Shown here piece by piece: positions 42,690 through 57,028 of a stretch of 64,000 nt of DNA. The DNA lies in assembly GCA_049516635.1 (NCBI GenBank), contig JBEKSX010000001.1, forward strand, positions 1,671 through 65,670. Direction: 5' to 3'. Position 1 is the first letter of the stretch, and each line of letters opens with the position of its first letter. The notes beneath the pieces are model-generated. The model worked only from the letters and a program-made list of their open reading frames with translations, had not been told where the DNA came from and did not search any database. A program made the position numbers and the translations under genes. This DNA is from Ignavibacteria bacterium (lineage in GTDB: Bacteria > Bacteroidota > Ignavibacteria > Tepidaquicellales > OLB5).

Positions 42690-44255
42690 TCAATTGTTAT
42701 ATCCGTTTGTCCTTAACCATTCCTTCGCATCGGAATCACCCAATGAAGCTGCTTTCTCGAAATATCCGGCTGCTGTTTCTTTGTTACCCAAATTAACGTA
42801 CGCAACACCAAGGTTAAAATAACCATATGCTGAATTCGGGTTCACTTCGACTGCTCTGTTATAATCTTTTACCGCTTTCTTATAATTTCTTTGTTCAGCA
42901 TAAATATATCCCCTGTTAACATAGGCCTTTTCATAATCAGAGTTGAGCTGTATTGCTCTGGTGTAATCGTCAATGGCATCCGCGTAAGAATACAGTTCTG
43001 TATAAGCCTTTCCTCTGTAAAAATATGCATCCGCCGAGCCTGGATCGGCACTCAGCGAAATATTCAGATTGGCAACTGCGTTTTCGTAATCCCTATGCTC
43101 AATGCAATTTATTCCTTTGTTTAGATATTCTACTGCTGAAACAGAAGGTGCTTCGGATATCTGGTTTTCCTCTTTCGGCGTTTCTTCAACTCTAGGGGTC
43201 TCTTCGACCTTTGGGGCTTCAGTTACTTCTCTCTCTTCTGCTTTTGGTGTTTCAACTTTAGGCTGCTCCTGAAGTTCTTTTATCTCTTCTTTTGGAGCTT
43301 CTTCAATTTTTGGCGCTTCAGTGACCTGTTTCTCCTCAGCTTTATTTACTTCAGTCTTTGGTTCTTCCTTCTTCGGTTCAGTTACAACATTTTTTTCTTC
43401 TACCTTTGGTGTCTCCTCAACTTTAGGAACTTCCGCTATGGGTTTTTCTTCAATCTTTGGTTGTTCCACCTGGGGCTGTTCAACAGGTTGCTTCTCTTCC
43501 ACTTTTGGGGCTTCGCTTATTGGTTTTTCTTCAACTTTAGGTTGTTCTACTTTCGGAGCTTCTGTTACCGGTTTTTCTTCAACCTTTGGTTGTTCTACTT
43601 TAGGGATCTCTGTTACCGGTTTTTCTTCAACCTTTGGTTGTTCCACTTTAGGCTGTTCCTCGATTTTAGGTGCTTCAGTAATCTGATTATCCTCTGACTT
43701 CGTTGTCAAGCCTGCATCGACAAATTCTTTTGCGGACAGACGATCTTTTGCAAGGCCATAGTTAGGATTGATATCTATAGCTTTTGAAAAATCATTGAAT
43801 GAATTTTTATAATCCTTTAGAGCGAAATACGCATTACCGCGGTCATAGTAGAATTCCGAGTTTTGAGGTTCCATACCGAGAGCAGAAGTATAATCACTTA
43901 CAGCTTTGGCATATTCCCTGTTATCGTAATACGAAAGCCCGCGGTTCACGAAACCTCTCGTTGTCTTCGGTTCAAGAATAATGACTCTGGTAAAATCGCT
44001 TATGGCTTTGTTGTAGATTTTAATCTTTCTGTACAGGGTACCCCTATTGAAATATGCATCTATATAATTATAATCGATCCCCAGGGCCATTGAATAATAT
44101 ATTATCGCTTCATCATAATTATTTGCCTTTTCGGATTCGAGAGCTGAATTAAAAAATTTCACAGCTTCCCTGTCCTGTGCCTGGGTCCGAAAGGAAGATG
44201 ATAATAAAATGAACAAAAAAATAAAAAAAGAAGTATATTTAACTATTGCTTTCAT
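42690..44255 (-). CDS. TPR-repeat protein with central Pro/Glu/Lys/Val-rich tandem-repeat spacer
   Basis: 521 aa. A signal peptide is followed by four or five TPR units (AIIYYSMALGIDYNYIDAYFNRG...), about 180 aa of EQPKVEEKPVTEAPKV-type repeats, and three or four more TPR units. Confidence 0.8.
   Translation of the reverse strand: MKAIVKYTSFFIFLFILLSSSFRTQAQDREAVKFFNSALESEKANNYDEAIIYYSMALGIDYNYIDAYFNRGTLYRKIKIYNKAISDFTRVIILEPKTTRGFVNRGLSYYDNREYAKAVSDYTSALGMEPQNSEFYYDRGNAYFALKDYKNSFNDFSKAIDINPNYGLAKDRLSAKEFVDAGLTTKSEDNQITEAPKIEEQPKVEQPKVEEKPVTEIPKVEQPKVEEKPVTEAPKVEQPKVEEKPISEAPKVEEKQPVEQPQVEQPKIEEKPIAEVPKVEETPKVEEKNVVTEPKKEEPKTEVNKAEEKQVTEAPKIEEAPKEEIKELQEQPKVETPKAEEREVTEAPKVEETPRVEETPKEENQISEAPSVSAVEYLNKGINCIEHRDYENAVANLNISLSADPGSADAYFYRGKAYTELYSYADAIDDYTRAIQLNSDYEKAYVNRGYIYAEQRNYKKAVKDYNRAVEVNPNSAYGYFNLGVAYVNLGNKETAAGYFEKAASLGDSDAKEWLRTNGYNN
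43522..43665 (-). repeat. Three near-identical 48-bp in-frame tandem repeats (core of a longer degenerate array, about 43140-43690)
   Basis: Copies of ggtttttcttcaacctttggttgttctactttagggatctctgttacc start at 43522, 43570 and 43618. Each encodes a 16-aa unit. Confidence 0.85.
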
Positions 44256-44443
44256 TTTTGTATGTAATAAAAATTACTAAAGGCATTTGAAAAGTGCAGT
44301 TCTGCTTTATGATAATAAAAAGAGCAGACTGCCCGGAATGTTTTGTTTACTATTATAATAATCTCCATATGATTTTGTTCCAGTATTACCGCACATATTT
44401 CAATCCCCCAAAGGACTATCCGTGCGGCAGTTTAACATTTTTG

Positions 44444-44533
44444 CGGAGAGAGAGAGATTCGAACTCTCGATACCCCTTTACAGAGTATGACGGTTTAGCA
44501 AACCGTTGGTTTTAGCCACTCACCCATCTCTCC
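44444..44533 (-). tRNA. tRNA-Ser (anticodon GCU), type II with long variable arm
   Basis: The reverse complement folds as acceptor GGAGAGA/TCTCTCC, a 3-bp D stem, anticodon arm ACGGT-TTGCTAA-ACCGT, a 6-bp variable arm, T arm GAGAG-TTCGAAT-CTCTC and discriminator G. CCA is not encoded. Confidence 0.9.
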
Positions 44534-44828: not shown

Positions 44829-45368
44829 TTAATGCACGCACAAATTATAATTATGTGTCTTTTCCAAACAGCTTTTACAATAAATATTCCCTTTTATATC
44901 AATTTCTTCTATTTCAAGCGAGGCATGCATCACACAGTCCCAGTCAATGCAATGTATAAGCCCAAAATTATGTCCAAGTTCATGCAGTACCTCTTTCATT
45001 GAACGTTGGTACAGCAATTCATCATCCGAACGCCCGGAATAGAATTCTTCATGCAGCCGGCAAATAGAGACTATGCAGTGTTTACCCCCGAGCTGCGCTT
45101 CACCGTAAATAAAAGTAAGCACCGGGACAAACAGGTCATGTTCGGTAAGGAGGATGATCTTTCCATCATAATCCGATGTTCGGTTCATTGCCTGTGAGAT
45201 AATCTGTGTTGAGTAGTACTGTCTCCGTTCTGCAGAGTAAGCAGATTCTATATCTAGATTCAGATCTACGATTTTAACCGATATGTGGAAAATATCAGAA
45301 AGACCATTACGAATCTTTTGGATCAGTGTTGTATTGGAAAATTTAACCGGGACAAGATAGAGGTTCAT
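44829..45368 (-). CDS. amzA: Archaemetzincin-like zinc metalloprotease (M54 family)
   Basis: 179 aa. HELGHNFGLIHCIDWDCVMH-x15-CKSC matches the archaemetzincin signature HExxHxxGx3Cx4CxM...CxxC, with spacing one residue shorter than the published X17. The start ATG overlaps the upstream stop (ATAATG). Confidence 0.8.
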   Translation of the reverse strand: MNLYLVPVKFSNTTLIQKIRNGLSDIFHISVKIVDLNLDIESAYSAERRQYYSTQIISQAMNRTSDYDGKIILLTEHDLFVPVLTFIYGEAQLGGKHCIVSICRLHEEFYSGRSDDELLYQRSMKEVLHELGHNFGLIHCIDWDCVMHASLEIEEIDIKGNIYCKSCLEKTHNYNLCVH

Positions 45369-46717
45369 TATTGGGAATTTTTTCGGAACCCGTATTTATT
45401 GATCTTGTTATATAAAGTAACCCTGTCGATCTGGAGCAATTCAGCACTCCTCGAGATATTCCATTCATTTTCCACGAGTATCTTATATATATGCTTTTTC
45501 TCCATTGCAGAGAGACTTTTATCGGAATCATCGTCTGTGATCTGGCTTACGCTGAACGGAAGATCTTCGAACTTTATTGTATCCGATTTACCTATCACGA
45601 CTGCTCGTTCAATGGCATTCTCAAGCTCACGCACATTACCGGGCCAGGAATAATTAAGCATGAAATTCATAGCTTCGGGGGAAATGCTCTTTATGTTCTT
45701 GTTCATTGCAGAAGTGAGCTTGTTAAGGAAATAATAAGCAAGCACCGAAATGTCCTCTTTACGTTCTCTCAAGGGTGGAATAAATATTGTAAATACATTC
45801 AGACGATAGAATAGATCTTCACGGAACTTCCCTTCTTTTACAAGCTCTTCTAAAGATTCGTTCGTAGCAGCAATCACCCTGAAATCGCTCGAAATGAGTT
45901 CGTTGCCTCCTACCCGGTTAAACTTCTTCGTTTCAATGACACGAAGCAATTCTATCTGTACCTTTTGAGATACTGAGCCTATCTCATCCAGAAATATGGT
46001 ACCGCCCTGTGCCATCTCGAACTTACCCTTTCTTTTGTACTGTGCCCCTGTGAAAGCCCCTTTTTCATGCCCGAAGAGCTCGCTTTCCAGCAAAGATTCT
46101 GCAAGAGCTCCGCAGTTGACAACAACTATCGGGAAATATCTTCTTTTGCTGTTTATGTGTATTGCTTTAGCTATTAACTCTTTCCCGGTGCCGCTTTCTC
46201 CCCGGATCATTACGGTCGTATCAGTAGGTGCTACTGTATTTATCAGGTCGAATATCTTTTTCATCTGTTTGCTTTCACCGGCAAGATTATCAGGCATTAT
46301 GAGTTCTTTAATCTTTGATTTTAGCTGTACATTCTCGCTCCTCAACTCTCTCTGTTCAAGTGCCTTTTTAACAAGGTGATTCAATTCATCAGGATCGACA
46401 GGTTTTGTAACATAATCAAATGCCCCGTCTTTTAGTGCCTTTATGGCAGATGAAACTGATGCGAAAGCAGTGATCAATATGACAATACTGTCCTTATCGA
46501 TCTCCTTAATTTTAACCAGGAGGTCTAATCCGTTCATACCCGGCATTTTCATATCAACGAGCAGGAGATCATATTTATCTTTGGTAAATTTCTTCAATGC
46601 CGTTTCAGCATCCTCAGCTGTATCAACGTGGTATCCTTCTTCTTCAAACCAATGAAAAAGAGAATCCCTTACGATTTTTTCGTCATCAACTATTAATATA
46701 CTTGCTCTTGAATTCAT
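45368..46717 (-). CDS. Sigma-54-dependent response regulator (NtrC family: receiver, AAA+ and HTH domains)
   Basis: 449 aa. It has a receiver (ILIVDDE...DLLLVDMKMPGMNG), an AAA+ domain (GESGTGKE, GAFTGA loop as EKGAFTGA, FREDLFYRL) and a C-terminal Fis-type HTH. Confidence 0.9.
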   Translation of the reverse strand: MNSRASILIVDDEKIVRDSLFHWFEEEGYHVDTAEDAETALKKFTKDKYDLLLVDMKMPGMNGLDLLVKIKEIDKDSIVILITAFASVSSAIKALKDGAFDYVTKPVDPDELNHLVKKALEQRELRSENVQLKSKIKELIMPDNLAGESKQMKKIFDLINTVAPTDTTVMIRGESGTGKELIAKAIHINSKRRYFPIVVVNCGALAESLLESELFGHEKGAFTGAQYKRKGKFEMAQGGTIFLDEIGSVSQKVQIELLRVIETKKFNRVGGNELISSDFRVIAATNESLEELVKEGKFREDLFYRLNVFTIFIPPLRERKEDISVLAYYFLNKLTSAMNKNIKSISPEAMNFMLNYSWPGNVRELENAIERAVVIGKSDTIKFEDLPFSVSQITDDDSDKSLSAMEKKHIYKILVENEWNISRSAELLQIDRVTLYNKINKYGFRKNSQ

Positions 46718-46723
46718 ATTTAT

Positions 46724-48373: not shown

Positions 48374-48409
48374 TATAAAAAAACGCAGTCTCATTATTGA
48401 ACTGCGTTT
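48374..48409 (-). terminator. Rho-independent terminator between the GcvH-like gene pair and the kinase operon
   Basis: On the minus strand, aaacgcagt-tcaataatgag-actgcgttt is followed by TTTTTTT. Confidence 0.8.
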
Positions 48410-48471: not shown

Positions 48472-49209
48472 CTATTTTTTAAAAAAACTATTAATAAGAC
48501 AGGAATAGTTCTTCTTACCGATTGCTTCATATAAATATCTTACATTCTTACCCCCATCCATTATGGTTACTCCTGTTTCAGGATAAGTTGTAAGATAATT
48601 ATGCAAAGTATCTTCCATATTGGATAAATTGATCTCATATTCCGTTTCGCTGTAAGATGCATTCAAAATATCTTCGCGGTCAGCTTCAATCAGACCAAAC
48701 CATTCATTCGTTAAAAAGTCAAAAGAATCAAACTCAGATTTGTTAAGAAAGAGAAAAGTTATAGGAGAAGCAATATCGACCGAACCCCACTCTCCCTGGA
48801 TCTTAAGAAAAGATACACCGCGTTGGACATACCGGTCTCCATTTGTAAGGAAACGAACCGAATTTTGACAGTCAATCAGAATCAACACAGCAGGATTAAT
48901 GCCTATATAGAAAATATTCCCAAATAGATTTTTTACGATAAGGTTATTTTTTAAATAATAGTATGGAGGCCTGCGGTACTTAACATCATTCTTCAGCTTT
49001 TGTATTATTTTTTTGAAGAAGTCCGCATTCGGTGAATCATATTGTCCCTCGCCCTGCTTTATGCTCGCCTGGTTTCTCATAACCTGGTCAAATTCGCAAT
49101 TTTCACAGTCGAAATCTTTATCACAAAGCTTGTACTCAACCAGATTAGATGACATCCAGATACATTTCAGGTCATCGAATTTCTTATATGGTAGATCCTG
49201 TACGCTCAT
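48472..49209 (-). CDS. Hypothetical protein: N-terminal Cys4 motif plus diverged GcvH-like (H-protein fold) domain
   Basis: 245 aa. The Cys motif is C16-x12-C29-x5-C35-x2-C38 (KCIWMSSNLVEYKLCDKDFDCENCEFD). The core FYIGINPAVL...VQRGVSFLKIQGEWGSVDIASPI resembles the neighbouring GcvH-like protein. It shares the C-terminal GVTIMDGGKNV motif. Confidence 0.6.
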   Translation of the reverse strand: MSVQDLPYKKFDDLKCIWMSSNLVEYKLCDKDFDCENCEFDQVMRNQASIKQGEGQYDSPNADFFKKIIQKLKNDVKYRRPPYYYLKNNLIVKNLFGNIFYIGINPAVLILIDCQNSVRFLTNGDRYVQRGVSFLKIQGEWGSVDIASPITFLFLNKSEFDSFDFLTNEWFGLIEADREDILNASYSETEYEINLSNMEDTLHNYLTTYPETGVTIMDGGKNVRYLYEAIGKKNYSCLINSFFKK

Positions 49210-49246
49210 ACTATGTTATTGATACCTGTATTAAATTACAAAAATA

Positions 49247-49927
49247 TCAAAATGATAAAAATTCTTCTTCAAATTGCTTCATCCCCTCATCATCGATCTT
49301 TGCAAGAGCTCCCTGTATAACATTACCGCCGTCATACATAGTTACACCGACGGGTTCAGCCCTGAATGCATTCTCGCTTAAAAAATCCTTTAATCTTTTG
49401 AACTCATCTTTCATCCAGTTAATAGCAATATGGCTCTTCTTCAATGTATTTAAGTTATCTTCCATATTGATAGGAGCTATTACCAGACCCCAGTCTTCAT
49501 ACGGGTCGTTCAAAGCTTTGCCGATTATATTTTGATTTACCGATCTTACAATCCCAAAGACAGGAGAACGGAATTTTACAAATTTAGAATCAAATTTACC
49601 TTCAAGTATAATATCTCCTTGTTTAACAAATCTGTTTTCCGGGACGATCTTTTCTATGGAAATCTTTCCTAAAGCTTTAAGCACAAAATCGTCTACTCCG
49701 ATCTTCAACAACCCGTTTTCAAATATCTTTGCCCAGGTATGACCTTTATAAAAGTAATATCCTTCAGGCGCTAATATGCTCTTTTTAGTAAATACGGGGG
49801 CAGTAGAAGCCAAAGGTGATCTTGAATACTTTTCAGTTGCCGCTTTACTAGCTTTTCTATGCTTTATTACAAGAATATCTCCAATAATAAATAGTACTGC
49901 TGTAATTAAGACTAATAATGCTATCAT
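49247..49927 (-). CDS. Membrane-anchored GcvH-like (glycine cleavage H-protein fold) protein without the canonical lipoylation box
   Basis: 226 aa. An N-terminal TM helix is followed by YKGHTWAKI..G.LKIGVDDFVLKALGKI...VKQGD...FRSPVFGIVRSVNQNI...LNDPYEDWGLVIAP, which tracks the H-protein pattern. ESVKA is replaced by EGKFDSKFVKF. Confidence 0.65.
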   Translation of the reverse strand: MIALLVLITAVLFIIGDILVIKHRKASKAATEKYSRSPLASTAPVFTKKSILAPEGYYFYKGHTWAKIFENGLLKIGVDDFVLKALGKISIEKIVPENRFVKQGDIILEGKFDSKFVKFRSPVFGIVRSVNQNIIGKALNDPYEDWGLVIAPINMEDNLNTLKKSHIAINWMKDEFKRLKDFLSENAFRAEPVGVTMYDGGNVIQGALAKIDDEGMKQFEEEFLSF

Positions 49928-50376
49928 GATAAATCTCCTTTAAATTATGGTTTACATATATTTATAGCTCAAATCTTGTTCCAAACTTACTGTAATATAA
50001 TCATTCTTAAACATCTGTTATTCTTATATTTATATTTAACTTAATAAGCATTTGTATTTCTTAAGATGTATGATGTTTAATATTTTTACATATTTATTTG
50101 TGTAATTGCATATTATTGACTTCAATACCATTTGAAATTAATGTCATTGATGAATTTTTATACATAATACTGTTGAATAATTTTACACATATATAGGATA
50201 TTAAATGATTTCTTTTAAAATCTTTGTAGAATTTAAAGGTTTAACCAACTACACAAGTAAATTTGGTTTAATTACTATGTTTTTCACATTACTGATATAT
50301 TTATCCTATGAATCAAAAGACATTATTTATTAAATTTGATTTTACTGAATAATATTTCGTTACTGTAAATATTCGA

Positions 50377-52378: not shown

Positions 52379-52618
52379 TTTCTTAATAAAGATAGCAATA
52401 TTTATGCCAAATCTAATAAATCTAAGGGGAGATGAATAATTATTTAACTCGTTGATATTCAGAAGAATATTACAAAATAATTAGGATTTTGAGCCCTTTC
52501 TAAAAGTCAAGAGTGTTAATTGTAGTGAAATTGGACAGTCTGAAGGTAAAATGTGGACACGAAAAGTTATGATTCATAACTAACAGAATAACAGTAACCG
52601 TATATAGAAAATATTTTA

Positions 52619-55600
52619 TTACTCGAATATAATTGTGAATAAAGTACCCTTTGGTCGGGTTATCTGGATTGAACCTCTAATCTGCTCAACTAAAGTAGAG
52701 ATGAGCTTCAATCCGAACGTACGGGATTCTGTGATATTGATTTTATCAGGAATACCAATTCCATCGTCTTTGACTTCGAGGGTGTATTTGTTTTGCTTAA
52801 GTGTTAACCTGATAAGAATCATTCCTTTCTTACGTCCTTTAAAGGCGTGTTTATATGAATTCGTTACAAGCTCATTAATAATAAGTCCACATGGTATGGC
52901 ATTATCGATGGACATAAAAATGTCCTTGGCTTCAAGGTTGACCTCAACAGCCGGTTTGCTTGTTCCGAAAGACTGCATGATGTAGGCAATTAGTGTTCTT
53001 AGATATTCATCGAAATTTATTTTACCCAGATTCTTCGATTGATACAGTTTCTGGTGTATGAGAGCCATAGATTGTACACGGTTTTGACTTTCTTTGAACA
53101 ATTCCAGTGCTCGTTTATCTTTTACATAGGTTGATTGTAGCTTCAGCAGGCTCGTGATTATCTGAAGATTATTTTTTACCCTGTGATGAATTTCTTTAAG
53201 AAGCACCTCTTTTTCAAGAAGCGATTGTTTTATTTCATCTTCGGATTTCTTCAGCTCGGTAATATCACGTCCCACTGACTGGTATCCAATAATTTTTTTA
53301 TTCTCATCGAATAAAGCCCTATCGGTCCATCTTTGCCATCTTATCTCTTTATCAGGCATCACCATCCTATGTTCGATAGTGGCAACAGGGTTTTGAAAAT
53401 TAAGAGATTTAAAATGTTTTTCGAACTTTTGATACTCTTCTTCGGGAATGGTGATATAAAACTTAGTCCCTATCAATTCGTTCTTAGATTTTTTGAAATA
53501 CCTGCTATAAGCATCATTCACATAAGTCAGAGTGCCATCCGGCATCCATCGGTAGATCATTTCCGTTTGGTCCTCAACTATGGCGCGGTATCTTGCTTCA
53601 CTTTCACGAAGAGCTTCTTCAATTACTTTGCGTTCTGTTATATCTATAGCAGTTCCGAGTACTGCCGGTTTACCATTATAAATTACCTGCGCTGATGAAT
53701 AATCCACCCATTTTTCGGTTCCCTCTTTTGTTAAAATCTTCATTTCATATCTTACCGGTTCTTTCTTACCGAGCAGTTTATTGAGCCCTCTTTGTTTTGC
53801 GACATCCTTAAAATCGGGATGCGTAAATTCCCAAAAATTCTCACCTACTATTTCATCAACTTTGTATCCTGTAAGAATTTCAGCATACGGATTAGCATAC
53901 ACGAATCTTTCATCTTGAAAGATGACTATTTCCGCGGGCATACATTCAGCCACAACACGAAATTTTTCTTCACTTAGTTTGATGAGATCCTCAGCATTTT
54001 TAACTTCAGTTACATCCAGTACGAGACTTAAAATTGCTTTTTGATTCTCGTATTCTATAAGCACTGATGATATTTGTGCCCACCTTTCTTTACCTGACCT
54101 GGAAATTATTATAAAATCATAGACAGGATCTACATATTCTCCTTTCATCTGTGTTATGATTCTTTCTTTTATAACTTTCTTGTAATCGGGACGAACCAAA
54201 TCAAGAAAGTTCATCTTAAAGAGATCTTTCGCTTCATAACCGAATATGTGCTCAAAGTACGGATTCACATACACAATTCTTTCTCCTTTTGTAATTACAA
54301 TTGATGCCTGTATTGCTTCCGTAACAGCACGGAATTTCAGCTCACTTTGCTTTAATGCTTCTTCAGCAGCCTTACGCTCACTGATATCAATGCATATCTG
54401 GATAACTGCATGTGTGTTTCCGAAAGAATCAAATTCCGCATACAAATAAGTATCAAGCCAGACAACTTTTTTATTTCGGTTAATAATTCTGTAATCTATT
54501 CTCTTGACCCCTTTAAAGTTCTCTTTCCTCCACTGGTTATAGAATGAAAACACTCTTTCCCTATCTTCAGGATAAATCATATCAATAAGCTCGGTATCGG
54601 ACAGGGCATTGAATTCATCTTTAGTATATCCCGATTGCCGTGTGAATTCATCATTAACAAATTCGTAAGTACTGTCTTTCACTAACAAACGTGTTACAGC
54701 TAAAGGAGAGTTCTCAGCAAGTTTTCTATATTTCTCCTCACTTAATTGTAGTATATCACGTGACTTTTTTTGTTCTGTAATATCGAGGCCATTTCCGAGG
54801 ACAGCCGGTTTTCCATTCAATTCGAACAAAGTAACAGTAAAATCAAGCCATTTCTCTTCACCGCTCTTTGTCATTATTTTGGCTTCATATCTATTAATAA
54901 CTTTTTCCCCGCGGATTCTGGCGAGCCCCCGGCTCTTCAATATCTCCTTGAAATCTGGGTGGACTACGTCCCAGAATTTCATTTTTTTCACTTCATCGAG
55001 TGTATATCCCGTTAATTCTAGCGCGTACTCATTCCCATAAAGAAATTTTTCATTCTGAAAGATGTATATCGCGGCAGGGCTAATATCACAAACTGCCCTA
55101 AACTTTGCTTCGCTTAAGCGGACTGCTTCTTCGTATCGCTTTTGTTCGGTGATATCTATGTATAGCTGGTTAATTGCAACCGGATTTCCATTTGTATCCA
55201 GATCTGCATAATGATATGTATCAAGCCATAGTTGTTCGCCGAATTTATTAAATGCCCTGTAAATGATGTGATTTATTTCTTTAAATCCATCTTTCACCCA
55301 TGTATTATATATATTTGTTAAATTATCAAGATCATCCGGATGTATAAGCTCGTTCAGCTGATCTATGGATAGCTGATTAAATTCATCAAGGGTATACCCG
55401 GACTGTCTAATAAACTCATCATTTACAATTTCATACCTTTTGGTTTTTATTGATAATCTCGTTATAGCAATGGGAGCATTATGTGTTAGCTTTCGATATT
55501 TTTCTTCGCTATCCCGCAAAGAGAGATCAGCTTTCTTTCGTTCAGTAATATCACGCATTATTGCAAGTATTTCATCTTCACCGCTAACGACCAGACGGGT

Positions 55601-57028
55601 TTCAAAGCAAGTATCTTCTCCATTTTTTGAAATTGTAAATTCGAATGTTTGTGTTTCACCGGTCTTAAACGCTGCCGTAATATTTTTCTTCAGAGTTAAA
55701 GCAAATTCCGAAGGGAGCACATCATCAATTTTTTTATTTAGAAAATCCTGAGGTAAAAAGAAAAGGTCACTGATATTTTTTGCCTTACAATCTAAAAAAG
55801 TTCCTTCACTGTTGAATTGGAACATAATATCAGGTATAGTATTTATCAGTATAGTATTCCTGCGTTCGCTTTTCAACAGCTGTTCTTCAGCCTGTTTTTG
55901 CTGTGTAATATCCTGTGTAAATGCAATAACCCCTACTATTTGCCCTTTTTCATTTCGGTAAGGAATTTTATCGGTTTTAATCCATAAACTCTCACCCTTA
56001 TCCGTTTTGATCCTATCTACTATACCAAATTTGGGAATTCCTGTGCTTATTACTTCCCGGTCTTCTTCCAGGAACTTGGCTGCCTCATCAGGATAAAACT
56101 CCTCGGTATATTTACCCTCCATTTCTTCAACAGTACATCCTTTTATTTTTGCTGCAAGTTTATTCACTCTGAGAATCCTGTTGTTATCATCTTTATATGT
56201 AATCATTGCAGGCACGGTATCCAGTATTAATCTATACTCCTCTTGCTGTTTTCTTATTATCTGTTCTGCCCTTTTCTGTTCGGTAATATCGGTCATGATG
56301 CTTTCCAGGGCTATAGGCAGGTTTTTATCATTTGTTATGAGAACATTTCTTTGGTTTATCCACTTAATATCCCCATTTTTATGAATAATCTGATATTCAT
56401 ATATAGGCTGAACATCCCCTTCCAGTAGCCGGGACCATTGCACATCAAAATAGTGCCGCCAATCAGGATGTATGATATCCTTTAATAATAGAGGTTTATG
56501 ATAGAATTCTTCAGGACCATAACCTGTAATTTCTAAAGAAGCTTTATTCACGTATTCATAATGACCATCGGCTAGAGATATTCTATTAATCATATCCCGT
56601 GCATTTTCTGCAAGCCTGAAATAACGTTTTTCGCTCTCCTCTAACTTCTTTTCAGCATCAAATTTATATAGTGCCATTCTTATAGTGGCTTTCAGGTCTC
56701 TATCTTGAAATGGTTTAAGAATAAAACCATAGGGTTTAGTGGTTTTTGTTCTGTTCAGCGTATCATCATCTTCGTGCGCTGTTAGATAGACTACGGGTAT
56801 TTGATATAGATCTAATATCTTTTTTGCTGCTTCTATTCCATCAATATCTCCCTTCAAAAGTATGTCCATTAATATTAGATCGGGTTTGTATTCACCTGCT
56901 AATTTTATAGCTTCTTCTCCGGTTTCCACTATGTCAGAAGTTTCATATCCTAAACCTATGAGAGTCCTTTTAATATCAAATGCAATGATACTCTCATCTT
57001 CGACGATCATTATTTTTACCTTTGGCAA
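52619..57028 (-). CDS. Hybrid signalling protein: N-terminal receiver, about nine PAS domains, and a HisKA_2-type histidine kinase core
   Basis: 1469 aa. It has a receiver (IMIVEDE...DLILMDILL..DIDG), repeated PAS/PAC units each ending in DIT[EQ][QR]K, a HisKA_2 H-box EIHHRVKNNLQII, and HATPase motifs (NELVTNSYKHAF, DDGIGIP). Confidence 0.9.
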   Translation of the reverse strand: MPKVKIMIVEDESIIAFDIKRTLIGLGYETSDIVETGEEAIKLAGEYKPDLILMDILLKGDIDGIEAAKKILDLYQIPVVYLTAHEDDDTLNRTKTTKPYGFILKPFQDRDLKATIRMALYKFDAEKKLEESEKRYFRLAENARDMINRISLADGHYEYVNKASLEITGYGPEEFYHKPLLLKDIIHPDWRHYFDVQWSRLLEGDVQPIYEYQIIHKNGDIKWINQRNVLITNDKNLPIALESIMTDITEQKRAEQIIRKQQEEYRLILDTVPAMITYKDDNNRILRVNKLAAKIKGCTVEEMEGKYTEEFYPDEAAKFLEEDREVISTGIPKFGIVDRIKTDKGESLWIKTDKIPYRNEKGQIVGVIAFTQDITQQKQAEEQLLKSERRNTILINTIPDIMFQFNSEGTFLDCKAKNISDLFFLPQDFLNKKIDDVLPSEFALTLKKNITAAFKTGETQTFEFTISKNGEDTCFETRLVVSGEDEILAIMRDITERKKADLSLRDSEEKYRKLTHNAPIAITRLSIKTKRYEIVNDEFIRQSGYTLDEFNQLSIDQLNELIHPDDLDNLTNIYNTWVKDGFKEINHIIYRAFNKFGEQLWLDTYHYADLDTNGNPVAINQLYIDITEQKRYEEAVRLSEAKFRAVCDISPAAIYIFQNEKFLYGNEYALELTGYTLDEVKKMKFWDVVHPDFKEILKSRGLARIRGEKVINRYEAKIMTKSGEEKWLDFTVTLFELNGKPAVLGNGLDITEQKKSRDILQLSEEKYRKLAENSPLAVTRLLVKDSTYEFVNDEFTRQSGYTKDEFNALSDTELIDMIYPEDRERVFSFYNQWRKENFKGVKRIDYRIINRNKKVVWLDTYLYAEFDSFGNTHAVIQICIDISERKAAEEALKQSELKFRAVTEAIQASIVITKGERIVYVNPYFEHIFGYEAKDLFKMNFLDLVRPDYKKVIKERIITQMKGEYVDPVYDFIIISRSGKERWAQISSVLIEYENQKAILSLVLDVTEVKNAEDLIKLSEEKFRVVAECMPAEIVIFQDERFVYANPYAEILTGYKVDEIVGENFWEFTHPDFKDVAKQRGLNKLLGKKEPVRYEMKILTKEGTEKWVDYSSAQVIYNGKPAVLGTAIDITERKVIEEALRESEARYRAIVEDQTEMIYRWMPDGTLTYVNDAYSRYFKKSKNELIGTKFYITIPEEEYQKFEKHFKSLNFQNPVATIEHRMVMPDKEIRWQRWTDRALFDENKKIIGYQSVGRDITELKKSEDEIKQSLLEKEVLLKEIHHRVKNNLQIITSLLKLQSTYVKDKRALELFKESQNRVQSMALIHQKLYQSKNLGKINFDEYLRTLIAYIMQSFGTSKPAVEVNLEAKDIFMSIDNAIPCGLIINELVTNSYKHAFKGRKKGMILIRLTLKQNKYTLEVKDDGIGIPDKINITESRTFGLKLISTLVEQIRGSIQITRPKGTLFTIIFE

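Follow-up and report, generated by a model that had tools for sequence, protein, structure and literature searches.

A bacterial clade of archaemetzincins, i.e., metalloproteases of peptidase family M54, has its genes consistently adjoining the gene of a sigma-54 response regulator (RR), and one such gene pair is described here from an Ignavibacteria bacterium. It lies in positions 1,671 to 65,670 of contig JBEKSX010000001.1 (assembly GCA_049516635.1), a stretch of 64,000 nucleotides (nt) that is referred to as the window; all window coordinates below are counted from its first letter. Our analysis points, with a probability of roughly 45%, to an M54 protein that acts on or with the RR as a hydrolase or partner dedicated to it, a proposal that draws on sequence comparison and gene neighbourhood. 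The genes concerned are organized as follows:

44829..45368, minus strand: archaemetzincin (M54) gene of the RR-coupled subfamily, 179 amino acids (aa)
45368..46717, minus strand: NtrC-type sigma-54 RR gene, 449 aa
46724..48316, minus strand: sensor histidine kinase (HK) gene, 530 aa
45366..45370, minus strand: RR/M54 stop/start overlap TAATG, with base 45368 shared

Re-reading of the open reading frames and junctions agreed with the first-pass annotation, according to which the ATG of the 179-aa M54 product overlaps the RR stop at nt 45368 and RR begins 6 nt past the HK stop. The minus strand reads ATAATG from 45371 to 45366, the RR stop TAA (45370-45368) and the M54 ATG (45368-45366) having one base in common, and 6 nt (46718-46723) lie between the HK stop and the RR start. 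The overlap suggests translational coupling of M54 to RR, and the layout suggests co-transcription of HK, RR and M54.

Conservation of the RR-M54 linkage

The linkage was surveyed starting from M54 and not from the HK/RR pair. One genome per species was scanned across bacteria and archaea, and the best 80 of 165 relatives were kept, nearly all of them labelled as Ignavibacteria-like metagenome-assembled genomes (MAGs). A search of 1.84 billion cluster representatives additionally yielded 3599 archaemetzincin family members (E<=1e-3). Taxon names given here are the labels attached by the sources to M54 proteins or MAGs, among which mis-binned contigs may occur. An orthologous RR (67-78% identity) was found directly upstream of M54 and on the same strand in 80/80 genomes, and HK precedes RR on all contigs long enough to show it. 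The RR stop and the M54 start overlap by 1 nt in 52 of these genomes and by 4 nt in eight, while a gap of 0-15 nt separates them in 18; the two outliers present a 96-nt gap and an apparent 26-nt overlap. The genes located 3' of M54 in the window, encoding a TPR protein, an arginase-family protein and DnaX, were not conserved across the 80 loci.

The same arrangement was encountered in other phyla. In representatives with 38-45% identity to the window M54, or in close relatives of them, the end of a sigma-54 RR gene is no more than a few bases away from the start of M54, with a 4-nt overlap in the high-GC locus L089 and in a Calditrichaeota locus, a 5-nt gap in a Thermodesulfobacteriota locus and a 6-nt gap in a Bdellovibrionota locus. 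A sigma-54 RR likewise stops a few bases at most from M54 on short contigs that include just the end of the upstream gene. The M54 gene of a Zixibacteria member stands alone and is not linked to an RR. A metagenome scan seeded with a 14-sequence alignment of this unlinked type returned 80 loci, 75 of which came with 150 nt or more of upstream sequence. An RR was located directly upstream in 17 of the 75 and in one further locus with a shorter flank (18 contigs), two loci had the order HK-M54-RR (confirmed for L163), and the remainder had no RR. Pooling of all loci gave 108 with RR upstream of M54, 2 with RR downstream and 54 unlinked, counts that include a few redundant contigs (L089-L092, for example, are copies of one organism). 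RR adjoins M54 in 110 of the 110 linked-type members with usable flanks, and two further blind cases agree.

It had been proposed in the first-pass annotation that linkage confined to this genome would speak for adjacency by chance. Having been found in every one of the 80 species genomes and in every sampled clade member elsewhere, the linkage is not due to chance. The description of M54 as a "fixed third component" of a two-component operon holds as well, viewed from the M54 side and for the RR-linked clade; a search in the reverse direction, starting from the HK sensor domain, gave one weak match. In two loci labelled as Syntrophomonadaceae (L041) and Acidobacteriota (L048), RR is 78% and M54 55-56% identical to their window counterparts, and these contigs may be mis-binned. 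A candidate natural RR-M54 fusion (P0139, AAA_lid+M54) was rejected as a frameshift artefact, as it lies on a "2x" contig and its RR matches fall in three pieces.

Rearranged modules

The neighbour followed by M54 can be seen where the gene order has changed. In locus L178 (1-8537), a 4-nt overlap still joins RR to M54, and HK is found at the end of a divergent GcvH-GcvH-NrfC-NrfD operon. In L163 (3355-6892) the order is HK-M54-RR. Furthermore, L094, L160, L165 and L177 carry HK-RR-M54 with no GcvH-like or NrfCD gene in the available flanking DNA. M54 therefore tracks RR more faithfully than it tracks HK or the redox genes, since RR and M54 stay together in L178 with HK moved and the module exists in four loci without GcvH-like or NrfCD genes.

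These loci also bear on whether M54 could target HK instead, for example by cutting its cytoplasmic HAMP or DHp region in order to reset signalling. In support of this, the unit begins with HK in most loci, and in L163 M54 comes immediately after it. However, RR and M54 are still overlapped in L178, where HK belongs to a separate divergent operon, and a cytoplasmic M54 (see below) would have the HK sensor domain out of reach. We thus regard HK as a highly improbable target.

Family assignment and active site of M54

The window M54 carries the motif HELGHNFGLIHCIDWDCVMH...CKSC, comprising the catalytic and zinc residues H129, E130, H133, H139 and M147, the Cys4 site C140, C145, C164 and C167, and G136. 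It scored 87.5 bits against Pfam PF07998 (Peptidase_M54; cut-off 24.4) and 155.3 bits against NCBIfam NF033823 (archaemetzincin family Zn-dependent metalloprotease; cut-off 145). Its alignment with the solved enzymes of A. fulgidus, M. kandleri and M. labreanum (E = 1e-18 to 1e-23) begins at residue 1 for the A. fulgidus enzyme and covers most of the length for the other two, and the motif region is gap-free against the sequences of M. kandleri (2X7M) and A. fulgidus (3ZVS). The top Foldseek matches of the AlphaFold model were 3ZVS, 3LMC, 2X7M and 4AXQ (E about 1e-11, TM-score 0.69-0.79); the mean pLDDT of the model is 72.6, with values below 50 at residues 84-89 and 137-159, i.e., in the cleft segments and at most zinc ligands. 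By its zinc site, Cys4 site, profile scores and fold, the window M54 is a member of the archaemetzincin family. The catalytic and metal-binding residues are invariant among 27 relatives. The complete motif is present in 133 cluster representatives, of which 131 retain the catalytic Glu and 131 match the window M54 in motif length. Loss of catalytic or Cys4 residues upon proper alignment, envisaged in the first-pass annotation as evidence against this assignment, was not observed, as all of them align with the solved archaemetzincins.

Two other statements made there need to be amended. A spacer of 16 rather than 17 residues had been noted, but this is no deviation from the family, as the solved M. 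kandleri and A. fulgidus enzymes also have 16. The published archaemetzincin consensus CxMx17CxxC differs in this respect from M. kandleri, A. fulgidus and nearly all relatives examined, which have 16 residues (window residues 147-164). The family had also been described as mainly archaeal and vertebrate, while many of the named ones among the 3599 matching cluster representatives are bacterial. Archaemetzincins are present in archaea, bacteria and vertebrates, including human AMZ1 and AMZ2. According to the family literature, their natural substrates are unknown, and the archaeal enzymes are inactive on standard substrates and have an occluded cleft (PMC3427221). The window M54 has no signal peptide. 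Given this and the alignment of its N-terminus with that of the A. fulgidus enzyme, we conclude that the protein is cytoplasmic.

The RR-linked clade and its cleft signature

In a neighbour-joining tree, 40/40 sampled M54 proteins with an upstream RR grouped in one pure clade. The two HK-M54-RR variants fell outside it, although they share T/S85 and Q92 with the linked clade and also have no F149. The 54 unlinked loci make up a bacterial sister clade, and linked and unlinked members differ at four positions (window numbering):

Position 85: T in 109 of 110 linked members; N in 52 of 54 unlinked members
Position 92: Q in 109 of 110 linked members; D in 36 of 54 unlinked members
Position 149: S or A in 96 of 110 linked members; F in 54 of 54 unlinked members
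Position 154: E in 108 of 110 linked members; A, R or others in unlinked members

The window M54 has A149, so that the Phe two residues after the Met is absent, and F is never the common residue at this position in linked loci. Positions 85 and 149 correspond to Asn79 and Phe136 of the A. fulgidus enzyme (AfAmzA), respectively. Asn79 belongs to the bulge-edge segment and Phe136 to the segment forming the S1' wall, both of which shape the substrate cleft (Graef et al., PMC3427221). Phe136 has been described as "highly, although not strictly conserved" (PMC3427221), and A149 therefore marks a subfamily and does not exclude the protein from the archaemetzincins. With substitutions in cleft segments and intact catalytic residues, the linked clade thus has its catalytic machinery preserved and its specificity site remodelled. 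The signature residues also predicted the genomic context correctly in 3/3 blind look-ups (P0290 and P0293 linked, P0303 unlinked). Full-text searches of the literature returned no paper pairing archaemetzincin or peptidase M54 with sigma-54 or a response regulator. While the gene family itself is known, the RR-coupled M54 subfamily, its cleft signature and the module of dihaem HK, sigma-54 RR and M54 appear to be undescribed.

The signature is also relevant to the view that M54 is a general cytoplasmic peptidase which inherited its place behind RR without a specific functional tie. Short gene overlaps are indeed common in operons, and the synteny of the linked clade may have arisen just once in an ancestor, with the whole cassette passed on vertically or horizontally thereafter. 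Still, RR-M54 synteny has persisted in several phyla, at M54 identities of 38-45%, against a background of otherwise changing flanking genes and through two distinct rearrangements, and the cleft-lining substitutions that go with it are found in none of the 54 unlinked relatives. An inherited position without functional meaning is, in our opinion, quite unlikely.

The response regulator and the histidine kinase

RR contains REC (PF00072), sigma-54 AAA+ (PF00158) and Fis-type HTH_8 (PF02954) domains, all above cut-offs, with D55 as acceptor and the GAFTGA motif at 220-225. In an alignment of 91 full-length linked RRs, F222, T223 and A225 are conserved in every sequence (100%). A second paralogue of RR, with 59-64% identity, occurs in L008, L021, L026, L039, L046, L050, L079 and L086, about 0.8-3.3 kb after the M54 start; it has lost the GAFTGA loop and has no M54 gene adjoining it. 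In four of these loci (L021, L026, L050 and L079), a detectable gene similar to P245 (see below) lies between the paralogue and a strong sigma-54-like promoter, TGGCTCGTTGTTTGCT.

HK consists of HAMP, HisKA and HATPase_c domains and a periplasmic domain that was not recognised by Pfam. The latter contains, within residues about 105-165, one CxxCH (CIACH) and one Cx4CH (CYNSDCH) motif. Exactly one of each is found at the same places in 83/83 orthologous HKs from several phyla. Motifs of the CxxCH type are c-type haem attachment motifs, and the domain is a probable two-haem redox sensor. Both RR and HK of the window scored below the cut-off of every named equivalog, the best models for RR being AtoC, NtrC and ZraR.

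Redox genes and candidate sigma-54 promoters

In most loci the module is preceded or faced by genes for membrane-anchored GcvH-like proteins, an NrfC-like 4Fe-4S protein and an NrfD-like membrane protein. This set was located at 48472-49927 (minus strand) in the window, 1510-4928 in L012, 2348-5002 in L089, 1371-5036 in L097, 248-4365 in L178 and 8634-12122 in L179. The window itself has two GcvH-like genes only and no NrfC or NrfD. We found no published description of a set of GcvH-like, NrfC and NrfD genes travelling with a signalling unit. The features upstream of HK are the following:

48375..48409, minus strand: hairpin in the P245-to-HK interval, formed by AAACGCAGT, an 11-nt loop and ACTGCGTTT (9-bp stem, read by eye), then a T-run
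48472..49209, minus strand: P245, a Cys-rich and weakly GcvH-like protein, 245 aa
49247..49927, minus strand: GcvH-like protein with a membrane anchor, 226 aa, opening the adjacent, probably sigma-54-dependent unit
49968..49983, minus strand: candidate sigma-54 promoter TGGAAC-N5-TTGAG, 56 nt 5' of the GcvH-like ATG

The hairpin and its T-run are likely to act as a terminator or attenuator, although a generic terminator scan did not list them, and their position upstream of HK suggests that HK-RR-M54 is a separate three-gene unit. P245 is found upstream of HK in most Ignavibacteria-like loci, and L097 has a Pfam GCV_H protein in the same position.

Matches to the -24/-12 elements of sigma-54-type promoters were enriched near the starts of GcvH-like genes, with 25% vs. 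4% of background windows at a threshold of at least 9/11 and 66% vs. 24% at a threshold of at least 8/11. The strong matches in other loci lie 47-65 nt upstream of a GcvH-like gene, and the window element occupies the equivalent position. A consensus scan of the whole window gave 23 matches vs. 21 expected and was therefore uninformative. It is plausible that the sigma-54-dependent regulon consists of the neighbouring GcvH-like genes and, elsewhere, NrfC/NrfD.

The proximity of the redox genes raises the alternative that M54 acts on the GcvH-like carriers, by processing or acyl removal, and is placed in the regulator operon for co-expression only. In its favour, most loci, spread over several phyla, have GcvH-like genes alongside the module. 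In addition, L096 (2202-4802) encodes, directly upstream of HK-RR-M54, a GcvH-like domain joined in one protein to an acetyl-CoA-synthetase-like adenylating enzyme (ACAS_N, AMP-binding, AMP-binding_C). This fusion hints that GcvH-like domains carry a covalently attached group, possibly an acyl group removable by an amidase. On the other hand, M54 is coupled to RR and not to the GcvH-like genes, the four loci L094, L160, L165 and L177 have the module with no such gene or NrfCD in their available DNA, and the hairpin with its T-run sets the GcvH-like genes of the window apart from HK-RR-M54. An action on the carriers is thus considered unlikely.

Some further features of the window were recorded. 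A tRNA-Ser gene lies about 295 nt 3' of M54:

44443..44533, minus strand: tRNA-Ser

The TPR protein gene downstream of it (42690-44255, minus strand) encodes 521 aa with TPR repeats at both ends, central E/P/K/V-rich repeats that are variants of EEKPVTEAPKVEQPKV, and a signal-like N-terminal segment. A 1469-aa protein encoded at 52619-57028 (minus strand) has, as read from its translation alone, an N-terminal receiver, many PAS-like repeats and a C-terminal kinase core, and a sigma-54-like element, TGGCATAAATATTGCT, is found just 3' of its gene at 52394-52409 (minus strand).

A proposed role for M54 in the signalling unit

The above can be brought together in the following scheme. The membrane HK, through its probable two-haem periplasmic redox sensor, would phosphorylate the sigma-54-dependent AAA+ RR. 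Since the M54 start overlaps the RR stop, ribosomes finishing RR probably go on to translate M54, and both proteins would be made together. M54 would then bind RR and hydrolyse either RR itself or a substrate presented by it, so that, for example, trimming or turnover of the activator sets or ends the response. The response would probably consist in sigma-54-driven expression of the membrane redox genes nearby, namely the GcvH-like genes and, in other loci, NrfC/NrfD. The physical partnership of RR and M54, the catalysis on RR and the regulon are the parts of the scheme that we infer. The first-pass annotation had hinted that M54 processes a pathway component; this may now be narrowed toward RR over the HK periplasmic domain, because M54 has no signal peptide and stays overlapped with RR when the HK gene is moved.

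A number of points weigh against a partnership between M54 and RR. Overlapping stop and start codons are common in bacterial operons and are no proof of a relationship between the proteins, and it is from gene context that we infer the binding or cleavage of RR by M54. No genuine RR-M54 fusion was seen among the loci examined, and no surface particular to M54-linked regulators emerged when these were compared with unlinked paralogues. The archaeal enzymes are inactive on standard substrates, which leaves catalysis putative for the family as a whole. Finally, the sigma-54 promoter of the window is degenerate at -12, with GA instead of GC.

A more specific version of the RR partnership may be put forward tentatively, namely a signal-controlled complex of activator and protease. 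In such a complex, assembly of RR into a ring upon phosphorylation would free the normally occluded cleft of M54 or bring a substrate to it, and M54 would cut RR, for example with removal of the receiver or destruction of the active oligomer, or else a bound client. This would, if true, provide the first physiological substrate and activation mechanism for archaemetzincins, and a new layer of control on bacterial enhancer-binding proteins. As the M54 gene of this clade is locked to one transcription activator across several phyla, the candidate partners are few: RR first, then HK and the GcvH-like proteins. Furthermore, our results point to an undescribed conserved redox-sensing circuit in which a two-haem kinase and a sigma-54 activator are combined with membrane proteins of the GcvH-like and NrfCD types.

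Comparison with known systems

The best-scoring named models belong to AtoS/AtoC and ZraS/ZraR, with which the window system shares an HK of HAMP, HisKA and HATPase_c domains and an RR of REC, AAA+ with GAFTGA, and HTH_8. All equivalog scores being below cut-offs, the window system is neither AtoSC nor ZraSR. It differs from both by a sensor with CxxCH and Cx4CH motifs and by a metalloprotease-family gene as a conserved third cistron.

The archaeal AmzA proteins (MEROPS M54; 2X7M of M. kandleri, 3ZVS/4AXQ of A. fulgidus, 3LMC of M. labreanum) are likewise single-domain proteins of about 160-195 aa, and they share with the window M54 the HExxHxxGxxH site, the Met-turn and the Cys4 zinc site at equal spacing. 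In contrast to AmzA, the window clade is bacterial and its genes always stand beside a sigma-54 RR gene; to our knowledge, archaea have no sigma-54 response regulators. Moreover, the linked clade has Thr in place of Asn79 and Ser/Ala in place of Phe136 (AfAmzA numbering).

The closest functional parallel is offered by Myxococcus xanthus, where carG is translationally coupled downstream of carD and CarG is found in a tight complex with the transcription factor CarD (PMC8156234). CarG is an archaemetzincin-like two-zinc protein in which the catalytic Glu is replaced by Gln (HQxxH), and it has no protease activity (PMC8156234; PMC3427221). Its motif has been published with an x16 spacer (PMC8156234). 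The window M54 resembles CarG in its archaemetzincin fold, in this spacer and in having its gene directly downstream of, and coupled in an overlapping manner to, a transcription factor gene. However, it keeps the Glu (HELGH), and its neighbour is a sigma-54 AAA+ activator, while the partner of CarG is of the HMGA or CarD_CdnL type and works with extracytoplasmic function (ECF) sigma factors.

This precedent, in which fold and gene arrangement are the same and a protein lacking protease activity binds its factor tightly, supports the possibility that M54 is a purely structural RR cofactor for sigma-54 activation in which hydrolysis is irrelevant, as does the inactivity of the archaeal enzymes in standard assays, with their occluded cleft. 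Nevertheless, CarG has lost the Glu that the M54 relatives keep almost without exception (131 of 133) together with the Met-turn, the substitutions of the linked clade sit in substrate-cleft segments, and CarG did not derive from this clade. We therefore find a purely structural role improbable and favour a catalytically competent zinc hydrolase, because the clade conserves the Glu and the Met-turn along with every ligand, and its own changes fall in the cleft.

The CarG model NF033824 gave 77.2 bits on the window M54 (cut-off 250), and its scores were 118-139 bits on the unlinked clade vs. 79-108 on the linked clade. Descent of CarG from the RR-linked clade is ruled out by the higher scores on the unlinked one. 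CarG is thus closer to the unlinked bacterial clade, and the RR-linked clade would represent an independent recruitment of the fold to a transcription factor. If the partnership of M54 with RR is true, it would be the second independent case, after CarD-CarG, of an archaemetzincin fold recruited to a transcription factor.

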